DNA from: a virus
Virus record (IMG/VR): IMGVR_UViG_3300002916_000001
Location: 1-64,000 of that record
Length of the DNA: 64,000 nucleotides
Reading direction: 5' to 3' (one strand)
Shown here one piece after another: positions 4,591 through 43,578 of this stretch. The notes beneath the pieces were generated by a model that ran no database searches, was not told where the DNA came from, and saw nothing but the letters and a program-made list of their open reading frames with translations. Position 1 is the first letter of the stretch. Each line of letters begins with the position of its first letter. A program made the translations under genes and the position numbers.

Positions 4591-5846
4591 GTCATGAACC
4601 CCATGCTTGAAAGCAGGGGCTTGTTCCTAGCCCGCAAGAGCCGAAACAATAGGCACCATGACTTGTGCCCTAGAGATATTCACAGCAGCGTTAAAGTCTG
4701 CGAGTGCAGCATACCCACATGCCTTACAGACAAATTCAGCTTGACTCCTGCGATTGGCTTTCTCGCAATGCTGACATACAGCACACGTGCGAGAGGTGTT
4801 CCTTGGATCAACCGTATGCAACGGGACACCTGCAAGAGCAGCTTTGTATGAGAGGAAGAAACGGAGTTGATTAAAAGACCAACTGCTATGGCGATTGCGC
4901 TGCGAGCGTCTAACCGTGCTATCGGTACGTTTCCGAATGTGCCTAAGCTCTTCAATCGCTATAGCCTGCCTATGTGTCTTGGCCTTTTGAACAATCCGCT
5001 TGGAGATGACATGGTTAGTGTTGCGCTTGAAACGAGCCTCTTTACCAGAAAGCTTTTTGAGATGTCTTTTTGCCGACTTGGTACCTCGTTTTTGAAGTCG
5101 CTGACGAAGGGAGTGCATTCGCTGTCTGTTTTTCTCGACAGCTTCTCCGCTGAATGTTTCCCCTTCCGAGTCTGTGGCAAGGTTCACTATGCCAAGGTCG
5201 ACTCCGAGCGTACCACCTTCCGGTTCATCGGGGGTTGGAGCGGGAACGTCAAGAGTCACTGCGAGGTAGAAGGTCCCTTGGCGATAGAGCAAATCGGCTT
5301 GCCCTTTGATCGAGTCCATACGGGACTGTTGATAGCCTCCGATACGGAAGGGGACAATGACACGCCCTTGCAGGGTCAAGAGGGAGACTTCATTCAATCC
5401 TTTGAATGCCATCAGGCGTTCATCGTAGGTTATAGCCCCTTCAGATCTGAAGGATGGTTTGATGCTCCTATCCCGCTTGTAGTTATCGACTACCTTGCTG
5501 ATAGCCCTGATAGCCATTTGAGACGACAAATTGAAGCGTTTGCGGATATCGCCATAGACAATCTTCTGAAGCTCAAATTTGTTTGCAAGCTTCTCATCAA
5601 AGGCTGTCTGAGCAATATCGTTACATGCAGCGTTAAATGCATGCATCGTCTCAAGAAGAGCGGTATGTTGTTCTGGCGATGGTGCCAATTTCAAGAGCAT
5701 CGTTTGTTTCATACAAGGATTATAGCATACTTAGAACGATGTTGTCAATACATTTCTAACAATTGGCTAGGATTGAATCCAGCCTTGCGAGGCTGTCATT
5801 TATTCCTCCCCATATCTAAAGAAAGGGGCTTCCTAAATGGGACGTG
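4591..5846 (-). mobile_element. IS200/IS605-family element, tnpB only (IS1341-type)
   Basis: Subterminal hairpins at both ends, right end ...GGGGTTCATGAC, target TTCAC next to the left end, no TSD. Confidence 0.9.
4627..5712 (-). CDS. tnpB: RNA-guided endonuclease TnpB
   Basis: GVDLG / IAIEEL / ADFNAA RuvC triad and CxxC..CxxC zinc finger. Confidence 0.95.
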   Translation of the reverse strand: MKQTMLLKLAPSPEQHTALLETMHAFNAACNDIAQTAFDEKLANKFELQKIVYGDIRKRFNLSSQMAIRAISKVVDNYKRDRSIKPSFRSEGAITYDERLMAFKGLNEVSLLTLQGRVIVPFRIGGYQQSRMDSIKGQADLLYRQGTFYLAVTLDVPAPTPDEPEGGTLGVDLGIVNLATDSEGETFSGEAVEKNRQRMHSLRQRLQKRGTKSAKRHLKKLSGKEARFKRNTNHVISKRIVQKAKTHRQAIAIEELRHIRKRTDSTVRRSQRNRHSSWSFNQLRFFLSYKAALAGVPLHTVDPRNTSRTCAVCQHCEKANRRSQAEFVCKACGYAALADFNAAVNISRAQVMVPIVSALAG

Positions 5847-30120: not shown

Positions 30121-31590
30121 GTCAGATGCCCCTGTCTAAAGACAGGGGCTTGTGTCTGGACTCCACCTCAATCCAGCATACCTCAAGAGGCGTGCTGCCT
30201 TGGCTTCACGATCCGACACATCAGGGCGTTCTGACAATACGCCCGTGCTCATCCAGTCCTGCCGAACGAGCAACGTTCTTAACGCTATATTCCTAGCTCC
30301 GACCAAATCGCTATGGAGATGATAGTGGCAGCTTTGACAGTCGAACAATAACCCGTGGTTAGGCCGATTCTTGTCATCGGTATAGCCGCATTTAGGGCAA
30401 GCTTTACTTGTGTAGTTGGCATCAACCTTGATGGTCATACACCCGTTCAATGCTGCCTTATAGGCAATCATACCCTGCAATTCCGCAAAGGACCATTTGG
30501 AGTACGCCGTGTTGGCTTTCCTCTGCTTGGTACTTACTTTTTTGCCGTTTTTTGTTCGCTTGCGTCGTGTTGTTCGCTCTCTGATATCTGTCAACTGCTC
30601 CAATCCGATAATGGAGTGCGGATTTCTTTGGATAATGCGTTTTGCTATGACATGGTTTGCATCAGCTTTCAACCGTCTCTCTCGCCCGCTTATCACTACC
30701 AAACGTCTGGTAGCCGAACGAGTGCCTTTTTGCTGAAGTCGTTTTCTCAATCGAGCATAATGGTTTGCTTTTGCTCGAATCTGTTTACCTGGAAAGAATT
30801 GGCTTTCTTCTCTTGTGGTCGCTGCCACTGCTAAATATCTCAATCCTACGTCAACACCAACGACACTTTTATGGTCCTCTGGTGTTTGATCCGGTTTCTC
30901 AATCTCAAGGGAAACCAGCAAGTAAAATTGTTTCTTCGCCTTGTTGTACCAGAGCTTTGCAGCTCCAATATCAGCACCTTTCTGGATCAAGGCGACATGC
31001 TTGTCATATCCTGTGTAGGGGATAGTCAAGCGCCCATCAACGGTCAAAAAGCCGATATGCCGATCTTTTTTGAAGTTATAGTCATGCTTATAGTTGACAG
31101 TGACGGTAGGAGAAACGTACTTTGGTGCTTGATCCAAACCCTTATAACGTTTCTTGGTTCTACCAGAAGCACGATCCGCAGCATTCTTCTTGGCCTTTGT
31201 CCAAAGCCCTCTATAGGTAGCTCCAACTTGCCTTGGCACATTACATGCCATCTGGGAAGGAAGACCATACAAGGCACGGATTTCACCGTAACAATCACTC
31301 TGCAATTTACGTGTGTTGCTCGTCTTACCGTGTTCAAATGCGTGCTTCGACACATGGTTTAAAGCATCTCTATATGCCAGTTGTGTCTTGCGTAATGCAT
31401 TGAACTGCTCAGGTGTCGTATTTAATTTAAGTTTTGCAGAAATGATTTGTTTCATAGATATAGTATAGCATATCTTCACGCACTTGTCAAGATATTTTTT
31501 ACCTTGCAGAAGTTGAAAGATTAAACCCAGACTGCGGTCTGCCATTTTTCCACCCCATATCTAAAGAAAGGGGACACCAAATGGGGCTTT
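30121..31590 (-). mobile_element. IS200/IS605-family element, tnpB only (left end +/- 3 bp)
   Basis: Left-end hairpin nearly identical to that of 4591-5846; right end ...GGGGCATCTGAC. Confidence 0.88.
30136..31455 (-). CDS. tnpB: RNA-guided endonuclease TnpB
   Basis: GVDVG / IGLEQL / SDLVGA triad and zinc finger; start MKQIISAKL. Confidence 0.95.
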   Translation of the reverse strand: MKQIISAKLKLNTTPEQFNALRKTQLAYRDALNHVSKHAFEHGKTSNTRKLQSDCYGEIRALYGLPSQMACNVPRQVGATYRGLWTKAKKNAADRASGRTKKRYKGLDQAPKYVSPTVTVNYKHDYNFKKDRHIGFLTVDGRLTIPYTGYDKHVALIQKGADIGAAKLWYNKAKKQFYLLVSLEIEKPDQTPEDHKSVVGVDVGLRYLAVAATTREESQFFPGKQIRAKANHYARLRKRLQQKGTRSATRRLVVISGRERRLKADANHVIAKRIIQRNPHSIIGLEQLTDIRERTTRRKRTKNGKKVSTKQRKANTAYSKWSFAELQGMIAYKAALNGCMTIKVDANYTSKACPKCGYTDDKNRPNHGLLFDCQSCHYHLHSDLVGARNIALRTLLVRQDWMSTGVLSERPDVSDREAKAARLLRYAGLRWSPDTSPCL

Positions 31591-38222: not shown

Positions 38223-38251
38223 TTGACATTAATACGCTAGTGTGTTATTAT
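38223..38251 (+). promoter_or_regulatory. Promoter of the accessory/early operon
   Basis: TTGACA-17nt-TATTAT. Confidence 0.8.
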
Positions 38252-41082: not shown

Positions 41083-41442
41083 ATGTCAATCATGATCCAG
41101 TCACCCGCCCGTAGTCTCACCGACCTCCATGCCTTCTCACAGACTTGCCCCGATGCCACTGAAGTCAAGGCTTTCATGGCAGCGCTGGGCTTCGACCTGG
41201 AGTTCGAACTTCCTGCCTACAAGGGCAGCGAGCATGTTCGTCCATTGCCACCGCAGTATCACTTCAAGGATGGCAGTGGCACAGTAGTGATCTTCCTGGC
41301 AGGCTACGATTGCACCGAAGATCGATGGGTAGCACAACACAAGTCTCGTTGGTGGCTCTATCCTGGCTCTAGCCAGTTTGCCTACAACGTGGCAATGAAT
41401 GCATTGAGTAGTCGATGGGGCTTGCCCTGGAAGTCAGTGTAG
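41083..41442 (+). CDS. Hypothetical phage protein
   Basis: 119-aa ORF in operon. Confidence 0.65.
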   Translation: MSIMIQSPARSLTDLHAFSQTCPDATEVKAFMAALGFDLEFELPAYKGSEHVRPLPPQYHFKDGSGTVVIFLAGYDCTEDRWVAQHKSRWWLYPGSSQFAYNVAMNALSSRWGLPWKSV

Positions 41443-41566
41443 TCTCTTTGTCAGTCTCGGCATTTCTCGGATCATCGGGGAATGTCGGTGCAGGCCAAGG
41501 GGCCGATGGGTATCGCAGCGATACCCTGGAGTGTTTCAATTTATCTCGAAAAGGAGAATTTCTATC

Positions 41567-42059
41567 ATGTCAAGCATCAACATTCAATTCGAGTCTGATC
41601 AATCCATCCTTCGCACGGCATTCGGCGATCCTGCCACGAATGCCCAGATTGTCAAGGATGCCGATGCGCGTCTCGCTGAGATCAAGGCAAGCGGTGGTCT
41701 GCAGGGTGGATCATTGCTGAAGATCAATGGCCCGTTGTCCTTACCTACAGCTTTCACGGTGGGGCATGCCGTGTTTCATGCCTACGGTGCTATAGCGGTG
41801 TGGGACCCAAAATTGCAATCTTATTGATAAACGACAATTATTCTTGCCGCTGATGTCTAATAACTACAGGACCATCATAGGCTTGACCCGACTGGTTAGG
41901 AAGCCCCGCTAGAAGTGTCCGCAGGGAACGAAGGCGACACAGGGGGGGGTAACTGCTTTTTAATTGACATTGAGCAGTAATAATAATTGTCGTTCATCAT
42001 CTGATATTGTCTCGGTTTCACATTCGCCTGATTACAAGATAGGTCAATTGATCGACTAG
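41567..42059 (+). pseudogene. csx3: Csx3/Crn3 cyclic-oligoadenylate ring nuclease gene interrupted by a MITE
   Basis: LLKINGPLSLP.AF.VGH..FH.YGAIAVWDPKL + IVSVSHSPDYKIGQLID; 103 aa after reconstruction. Confidence 0.85.
41825..41999. mobile_element. 175-bp MITE with TG...CA ends
   Basis: 18-bp TIR TGAT(A/G)AACGACAATTATT, 6-bp TSD TCTTAT/TCTGAT. Confidence 0.85.
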
Positions 42060-42117
42060 TCCATGCAGTCCATGCCTTCCCCGACTTGCAGGGAAGGCAT
42101 GGAGAGAGGATTCTCAA

Positions 42118-42513
42118 ATGGGTCTCGATAACTACTTTAAGCGCACAGTGCCCAGCCCCGATCAAATCAGCTTTCCTGAAGATCTTCATCTTTGCGGAGG
42201 CATATTCTCAGGGCATGGCAGTGATGGTAGCTTCCGTGGCAAGGTCTATGTGCAATTCTTTGAGCAGAATCTAGATACCAATCTCTATTCTGGGTCCAAC
42301 CGTGATGAGGTTGCGCAAATTGCAGAAAAGCTGTCTGCCCTGGTGCAAGCGCATCCCGATCAGGCATGGAACGGGAACGCGCAATGTTGGCAGCAGGATG
42401 CTCCATCTGAGGACTTGGGCTACTACGGTGTGACTGCCCGTGAAGTGCGCGATCTTGCATCTCTTTTTCAGTCTGCTGCAGAGCAGGAGCTTCAGTTAGT
42501 TGCATATTATTAG
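42118..42513 (+). CDS. Hypothetical phage protein (MGLD-start family)
   Basis: 131 aa, RBS, MGLD...SFRGKVY. Confidence 0.7.
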   Translation: MGLDNYFKRTVPSPDQISFPEDLHLCGGIFSGHGSDGSFRGKVYVQFFEQNLDTNLYSGSNRDEVAQIAEKLSALVQAHPDQAWNGNAQCWQQDAPSEDLGYYGVTAREVRDLASLFQSAAEQELQLVAYY

Positions 42514-43537: not shown

Positions 43538-43578
43538 ACAGCCCTTCTCCCTGTCAATTAGGGAGAAGGGCTGTTTTT
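43538..43578. terminator. Bidirectional intrinsic terminator
   Basis: ACAGCCCTTCTCCCT...AGGGAGAAGGGCTGT-TTTT between convergent genes. Confidence 0.8.

Follow-up and report, generated by a model that had tools for sequence, protein, structure and literature searches.

A csx3/crn3 ring-nuclease gene, a candidate anti-CRISPR, interrupted by an IS21-type element in a temperate soil phage

The stretch of DNA analysed here, the 64-kb window, comprises positions 1 to 64,000 of the IMG/VR virus record IMGVR_UViG_3300002916_000001 and contains a csx3/crn3 gene that is split by a short insertion. In our view this gene, placed in an operon of a temperate tailed soil phage, probably encodes a ring nuclease of the Csx3 fold that degrades cyclic tetra-adenylate (cA4), serves as an anti-CRISPR when intact and has been inactivated here by an IS21-type element lying between codons 86 and 87. 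The structure of the gene, its family and fold, its phage setting free of cas genes, its intact orthologues with the substitution pattern of purifying selection and a sister clade within type III-A loci are documented below. What is new is the phage setting of Csx3/Crn3, a family not so far seen in viruses, while the family name itself is already known.

The gene and its interruption consist of the following features, in positions of the window.

41551..41556, + strand: ribosome-binding site AAGGAG, 10 nt 5' of the csx3 ATG (direct reading)
41567..41824, + strand: 5' part of csx3/crn3, codons 1-86, with H67, H71, D80 and K82
41819..41824: left copy of the putative 6-bp target-site duplication, TCTTAT, matching 42000-42005 at 5/6 positions
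41825..41999: 175-bp non-autonomous insertion of IS21 type, resembling a miniature inverted-repeat transposable element (MITE); its first triplet, TGA, ends the open reading frame (ORF)
41825..41851, + strand: left terminal inverted repeat
41973..41999, - strand: right terminal inverted repeat, with a second, degenerate copy of the end motif at 41961-41976
42000..42005: right copy of the putative target-site duplication, TCTGAT
42006..42059, + strand: 3' part of csx3/crn3, codons 87-103 and the stop, with H92 (the equivalent of H80 in the Archaeoglobus fulgidus protein, AfCsx3), the last beta-strand and the helix

The reading frame of csx3 starts with the ATG at 41567, continues for 86 sense codons to 41824 and ends with the TGA at 41825-41827, as had been stated in an earlier, sequence-only reading of this DNA. 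That reading had also proposed that removal of the insert and one flanking repeat yields a protein of 103 residues. Indeed, deletion of 41825-42005 (181 bp) fuses ...WDPKLQSY to IVSVSHSPDYKIGQLID and the stop, giving a product of exactly this length, and the two pieces in the window are colinear with 11 homologues with neither gap nor overlap in the alignment (9/11 of these homologues are themselves 103 residues long). When aligned at the DNA level, the insert forms a single block that is missing from all four uninterrupted alleles. The inverted repeats, claimed to be 18 bp long, agree at 17 of their outer 18 nt, and the arms in fact extend to 27 nt (41825-41851 and 41973-41999, inverted and 85% complementary). 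The putative 6-bp flanking duplication, TCTTAT/TCTGAT, was correctly placed, directly at the exact borders of the inverted repeats, although it is not a perfect one.

The interrupted form of csx3 is not an assembly artefact of this record, since it recurs in independent Logan assemblies: an identical 13.7-kb contig of soil run X1 (depth 38) has the interrupted gene, and in soil run X6 a contig of 974 nt spans the right junction of the insert. No empty-site joint was found in the contigs compared from soil runs, contigs being assemblies that drop rare variants, so that minor alleles are not addressed by this comparison. Because the premature stop removes the last beta-strand (85-91 in the model) except for its first two residues 85-86, together with the entire C-terminal helix and His92, the allele in the window is very probably inactive. 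As the allele shows no other lesion, the insertion looks recent and the allele would be a recent pseudogene. Ten nt past the csx3 stop, at 42069-42103, there is a perfect 13-bp inverted repeat (TCCATGCCTTCCC / GGGAAGGCATGGA) lacking a T run, which is not present in the allele of the related locus L129.

The 86-residue stub in the window alone gave no Pfam match, because the scoring C-terminal half is cut off; ordinary annotation by ORFs and Pfam thus misses the interrupted csx3, as had been foreseen. A search with the stub against 5.8 billion proteins returned 20 relatives, mostly of exactly 103 residues and 66-90% identical. With ten close or related homologues, scores of 23-36 bits were obtained for the Pfam family PF09620, Cas_csx3 (gathering score 21), and the Csx3 models of PADLOC match three intact alleles with E-values of 7e-20, 3.5e-16 and 2e-7. 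In addition, some homologues are already labelled Csx3 in their source databases, and the Nostoc orthologue is named Csx3 by RefSeq. A family profile of 86 members, drawn from 353 clusters that matched at E<=1e-3 among 1.8 billion representatives searched, matched only chains of AfCsx3 when compared with the PDB (E 3e-5); an earlier and smaller profile of 18 sequences had found no match there. Among the database representatives, several have two Csx3 domains in a single chain.

The predicted fold, of the STAS/CARF-like alpha/beta type known for Csx3, leads to the same family. For the closest intact relative, P0002, an AlphaFold (AF2) model was obtained with a predicted local distance difference test score (pLDDT) of 88.7, and its top 11 Foldseek matches in the PDB are all AfCsx3/Crn3. 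Alignment of the model to AfCsx3 with VIA-align gave a Z of 8.1-8.3 and a root-mean-square deviation of 2.5-2.6 A over 86-88 of 103 residues, the next family reaching a Z of 7.2. The assignment to Csx3/Crn3 made in the sequence-only reading is hence borne out by Pfam, PADLOC, the profile-to-PDB search and the fold, including the comparison with Csx3 models that it had called for, made here with intact homologues. Its remark that AcrIII-1 is a different family also holds, as DUF1874 is not among the Pfam matches of the ten homologues at E<=1, PF09620 is listed, and the fold matches are to Csx3.

Within the 18 aligned sequences, H67, H71 and D80 never vary, and K82 and H92 hardly ever do. The profile alignment to 6YUD and 3WZG pairs H67, H71, D80, K82 and H92 with H57, H60/H61, D69, R71 and H80 of AfCsx3, and the spacing from H71 to D80 equals that from H60 to D69 in AfCsx3, 9 residues. 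In AfCsx3 the active site is composed of two faces, H57, H60 and H80 forming one and D69 and R71 the other (PMC7371418). The break in the window leaves H67, H71, D80 and K82 on its 5' side and H92 on its 3' side. It may be asked whether a protein with the Csx3 fold could here bind another ligand, such as other cyclic oligoadenylates or other defence signals, or act as a non-catalytic sponge. The identity to AfCsx3 of only about 20%, the Lys in place of Arg71, a relative below the equivalog cut-off of NCBIfam and the many nucleotides bound by the related CARF and SAVED folds all speak for this possibility. However, the composite active site retains its three histidines and its aspartate, and the sister clade, at 43-59% identity, resides in type III-A loci with CARF-type partners, so that we regard a different ligand as decidedly unlikely.

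The record from which the window is taken is a virus contig of 75.5 kb with a CheckV completeness of 78%. It encodes a helicase, several primases, a tyrosine integrase and a GH25 endolysin, and past the window a tape measure protein of 1530 residues (phrog_167, E 4.5e-86) and a Dit-like protein; it is the record of a temperate tailed soil phage. The presence of tape measure, Dit, endolysin and integrase on the same record agrees with the earlier claim that the gene is phage-borne. The csx3 gene itself lies between the replication and the lysis/tail modules, within about ten small rightward genes. An identical endolysin occurs on a contig of 97,966 bp, and a contig of 195,973 bp, very nearly twice that length, has an identical 86-residue stub. 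This would agree with a genome length of about 98 kb, as also expected from 75.5 kb at 78% completeness, and with a single case of assembly as a two-unit concatemer. No tRNA genes were found in the 64-kb window. As for the host, there are hints only, namely a Chloroflexi metagenome-assembled genome (MAG) as the source of the homologue P0017 and Ktedonobacteraceae as the source of an endolysin relative.

That no cas genes lie nearby had likewise been claimed, and this was confirmed by a PADLOC scan of 150 ORFs, representing the whole record and five related loci. No Cas10, RAMP or CARF effector was present in the best 25 of 71 matched families, only Csx3 and two TnpB, and a six-frame search for Cas10/Csm1 found none in the record or in the 99%-complete relative G001. 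The apparent Csx1 matches of PADLOC were rejected, as they are the two TnpB proteins hitting a profile flagged 'found elsewhere'. The corresponding genes (IS605 OrfB or Cas12f-like) are located on the - strand at 4627-5712 and 30136-31545 of the window. A Csx1 profile mislabelled in this way could mislead automated defence annotation.

Uninterrupted alleles in related phages, which the sequence-only reading had suggested looking for, do exist. They belong to a set of csx3 genes, here called group A, that are 68-99% identical to P0002; five short group A contigs are labelled phage only by sequence kinship. The locus L129 has an intact csx3 followed by a 131-residue ORF and an HD gene as in the window, L132 (a contig of 57.8 kb) and L134 are syntenic with the window from 39 to 44.5 kb, and L004/L137 (G001) is a viral genome of 60 kb, 99% complete, with an intact csx3, an endolysin of the same family and no cas10. 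Soil run X8 lacks the csx3 of the window phage and contains a related phage with an intact allele.

The long contigs with a group A csx3 measure 30-80 kb, and in many contigs the gene is kept at exactly 103 residues. Pairwise dN/dS (the ratio of nonsynonymous to synonymous substitution rates) ranges from 0.08 to 0.22 in group A at nearly saturated dS, which on codon comparison indicates that csx3 is maintained by purifying selection in these phages. These data bear on the suggestion that a host type III locus was the source of csx3, and perhaps also of the HD gene, that csx3 is carried by phages as neutral cargo of no adaptive value, and that the insertion only marks its decay. In favour of such cargo one may point out that the gene was broken without visible harm to the phage population and that counterparts of its HD neighbour likewise occur in type III loci. 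A cargo gene would, however, hardly be expected to form a coherent phage-context clade, to stay at an exact length in so many contigs of 30-80 kb, to show the low dN/dS just given or to keep the same operon position in diverged phages, and we hold neutral carriage to be very unlikely.

A second set, group B, shares 43-59% identity and is found on contigs of up to 605 kb. In L140, the only one of these loci that was annotated, csx3 is directly upstream of a longer csx3 fusion gene, which is followed by cas10/csm1, csm2, csm3, csm4, csm5 and cas6; in several further loci of the group, the ORFs agree with those of L140 in size and order. CRISPR arrays are close to group B loci, and the plasmid pNsp_a of Nostoc sp. 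ATCC 53789 resembles them in layout, a CARF gene and RAMP genes included. Adjacency to type III CRISPR-Cas, a feature of the context and not of the protein, is thus restricted to group B and is absent from the phage record, G001 and the five related loci. In a maximum-likelihood tree groups A and B are separate branches with Shimodaira-Hasegawa-like approximate likelihood ratio test (SH-aLRT) values of 94 and 98, the tree being unrooted and giving no direction of csx3 transfer. The second gene of the tandem found in type III loci, of about 305 residues, has a second Csx3 domain as its N-terminus (the 'Csx3-prime' fusion).

L140:9989-11261, L141:10001-11259, L143:5655-6918, L148 and L153 9001-10286: Csx3-prime fusion genes

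The insert itself contains no ORF longer than 31 residues, and the core of its inverted repeat occurs at just two sites of the 64-kb window, in inverted orientation (0.23 expected by chance). Its ends read 5'-TG...CA-3'. To trace them, the 18-nt end was scanned in 185,579 species genomes, and at least 80 stretches were returned. In contigs of JAVCDD01, a MAG of Candidatus (Ca.) Hatepunaea meridiana, the terminus TGAT(A/G)AACGACAATTATTCTT starts more than 20 repeat copies exactly where their flanks diverge, and the terminus of the insert is identical over 18-21 nt to these IstB-linked repeats. The linkage is seen in L099 (865-1406), where an IstB_IS21 gene (PF01695, 82 bits) stops about 137 nt short of the shared terminus; no full istA-istB copy is assembled in this MAG, and the distance from the repeat end to the end of the contig is often about 126 nt. 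The same beginning is found in three copies of another MAG and in single copies of Vicinamibacterales and Methylovulum genomes. In the Ca. Hatepunaea contigs (L048-L127, more than 20) the IS21-family element with the end TGATGAACGACAATTATTCTTCCC is often situated at contig ends, where assembly breaks.

IS21-family elements are catalogued with target duplications of 4-8 bp, which the 6-bp flank fits, and they carry several transposase-binding repeats at each end, which the degenerate inner copy of the end motif fits. Because of the shared IstB-linked terminus, the TG...CA ends and this inner copy, the insert is read, from its ends, as a non-autonomous IS21-type element mobilised in trans. As no IS21 genes or transposase are present on the phage record, it is a reasonable inference that the donor was the host cell of the phage, in which the IstA/IstB pair of an IS21 element would have mobilised it. 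The earlier proposal that a host MITE had disarmed csx3 is in this way supported as far as a short non-coding element bounded by inverted repeats with IS21 ends is concerned; its origin from the host is presumed, no second copy having turned up in the collections searched. A contig of soil run X8 matches the interior of the insert (window 41888-41961) at a likeness of at least 85% with a depth of 1.65 and may be a second copy located elsewhere. Two other ideas on the insert were discarded. A 2-bp TA duplication of the IS630/mariner type would require the removal of 183 bp, which fails to restore the frame, and an RNA mimic with anti-CRISPR function is not suggested, the insert being unlike the CRISPR repeats of related type III loci.

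The insert of 181 bp, flanking repeat included, might also be removed at the RNA level in the manner of an intron, or be bypassed, so that full-length protein is made. Its excision restores the frame exactly, and it folds into a long stem with a z of -3.6. This stem, however, arises from the pairing of the insert's own inverted ends, which are transposon-type repeats identical to IS21-family termini; in addition, 175 bp is below the size of known self-splicing introns, and an Rfam scan of 41300-42400 at E<=1 gave no family, for which reason an intron or ribozyme was dropped as an explanation. We consider a removable insert very unlikely indeed.

How the intact protein might act can be outlined from AfCsx3. 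By analogy, the intact phage Csx3 would form dimers that stack head-to-tail around cA4, and the stacked dimers would cleave it with Mn2+ as AfCsx3 does. Cleavage would remove the signal made by Cas10, the Csx1/Csm6-type CARF effectors of a host type III system would stay silent, and removal of this signal by a phage would amount to an anti-CRISPR role. In E. coli, type III immunity that depends on Csx1 is relieved in part by the Csx3 of Methanosarcina mazei (PMC7371418). The same study offers material for a different function, in which Csx3 is expressed from the prophage and damps or resets host cA4, so that type III self-targeting of prophage transcripts spares the lysogen: the cooperative kinetics and the weaker suppression in vivo were read there as those of a cellular 'off-switch' (PMC7371418). 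The integrase of the phage would suit such an aid to lysogeny, and so would the off-switch function of the closest cellular relatives of the gene, which are located in type III-A loci. On the other side, the operon starts at a divergent promoter region with small accessory genes, more typical of early lytic genes, and the evidence agrees equally with a lysogenic and a lytic role, both of which would be counter-defence. We think a function in lysogeny rather unlikely.

Several observations weigh against the interpretation of the gene as an anti-CRISPR cut by an IS21-type element, some with regard to the protein and some with regard to the insert. The anti-CRISPR role presupposes a host, so far only hinted at, with a type III system that has cA4-dependent effectors. 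A Lys stands in the place of Arg71, which the AfCsx3 paper calls absolutely conserved (PMC7371418), and L140, the cas-locus relative, falls well short of the cut-off of the NCBIfam equivalog TIGR02579 (24.8 against 55.4 bits), which marks the subfamily as divergent. Csx3 was a weaker suppressor of immunity than AcrIII-1 in the eLife assay, and its authors argued for a cellular role (PMC7371418). The broken allele is the only form seen in the two soil runs compared, the phage apparently thriving without the gene. As to the insert, seven mini-elements of Ca. Hatepunaea (49-66 bp, consisting of the two ends only) are without flanking duplication, the insert's own 6-bp flanking repeat has one mismatch, and a second copy was found neither on the 75.5-kb record nor in IMG/VR, in GTDB species representatives (by a two-repeat pattern) or in plasmids and phages (by blastn). 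In IMG/VR, the scan with a 17-mer of the inverted repeat gave 43 single unpaired matches, taken as chance, and two interior 20-mers gave none. With these points taken into account, we still find an anti-CRISPR csx3 with an IS21-type insertion the probable explanation.

The remaining features of the csx3 operon in the window are as follows.

38223..38251, + strand: sigma-70-like promoter match (11/12, extended -10) that opens the rightward operon of small genes to which csx3 belongs (consensus match only)
42118..42513, + strand: ORF of 131 residues between csx3 and the HD gene, kept in the closest relative L129
42534..43187, + strand: gene for an HD_4 (SpoT-like) hydrolase of 217 residues, homologous to the HD genes flanking csx3 in type III CRISPR loci
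43538..43574, + strand: terminator-like hairpin (16-bp stem and T run) at the operon end (consensus match only)

From these consensus matches to a promoter and a terminator, the operon may be expressed early in infection. HD proteins of type III loci match the HD_4 hydrolase, two genes past csx3, with 31-33% identity and E-values of about 1e-19 to 1e-21. The hydrolase travels with csx3 both in the window phage and in its closest relative L129. Homologous HD proteins adjoin csx3 or the TIGR03985 protein in 5/9 type III loci examined, and pNsp_a has a similarly placed 'HD domain-containing protein', likened to them by annotation and position only.

L140:7878-8459, L141:7921-8547, L143:3324-3893, L144:3317-3850, L148:3906-4496 and L153 6918-7496, all - strand: HD homologues

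The recurrent pairing of csx3 with an HD gene in defence loci and in the phage suggests a shared pathway. It is conceivable, though rather unlikely, that the phage Csx3 clade is a true and hitherto unrecognised anti-type III ring-nuclease family which together with HD_4 makes up a two-enzyme module erasing the cyclic oligoadenylate signal or its products, a module that defence loci and phages would have exchanged as a whole. The pairing is in any case a lead on other actors in the turnover of cyclic oligoadenylates.

Ring nucleases of viruses are an established means of overcoming type III CRISPR signalling. So far, Csx3/Crn3 has been treated as a cellular off-switch, the authors of the AfCsx3 study having argued for a cellular and not an Acr role (PMC7371418). 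A survey of 28,114 phage genomes (2025) found AcrIII-1, Csx16 and Csx20 and no Crn3 (PMC12409355). Our own tblastn comparison of an intact csx3 allele with 50,697 deposited phage records gave no match, and the full-text literature searched holds no report of a viral Csx3. From the position of the phage clade as sister to type III-A genes it follows that Csx3 is another family exchanged between defence and counter-defence. Among its members, the intact orthologues are ready candidates for a new protein of the AcrIII type, and the interrupted allele would represent an anti-defence gene lost to an insertion sequence.

Compared with known systems, the insert shares with the insertion sequences and MITEs of the IS21 family the TG...CA ends, the 27-nt inverted repeats with an inner copy of the end motif and the IstB-linked terminus; it differs from them by its single known copy, by the record's lack of a transposase and by its imperfect flanking repeat. 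With Crn3/Csx3 of A. fulgidus (AF_1864; 6YUD, 3WZG, 6VJG) the intact protein has in common the length of about 100 residues, the fold and the His-His...Asp-x-basic...His pattern of the two faces of the composite site, whereas the identity is about 20%, Lys replaces Arg71 and there are one-residue insertions or deletions between the two histidines and before the last His. The A. fulgidus gene, moreover, adjoins a type III-B operon, while that of the window is phage-encoded and broken. The bacterial Csx3 and Csx3-prime proteins of type III loci (pNsp_a, L140-L148) are closer, with 43-59% identity, the same length and conserved residues and, nearby, an HD_4 hydrolase homologous to that of the phage (33% identity, E 3e-21); their loci have cas10/csm or RAMP operons downstream, CRISPR arrays, a TIGR03985 protein and CARF genes, none of which accompany the phage clade, and the latter forms a branch of its own. 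Finally, AcrIII-1 (DUF1874; cellular form Crn2), which is the usual ring nuclease of phage genomes, has an unrelated fold and a metal-independent chemistry, but the role proposed here for the intact phage Csx3 would be like its own, that of a small viral enzyme which destroys cA4 and thereby blinds the type III effectors.

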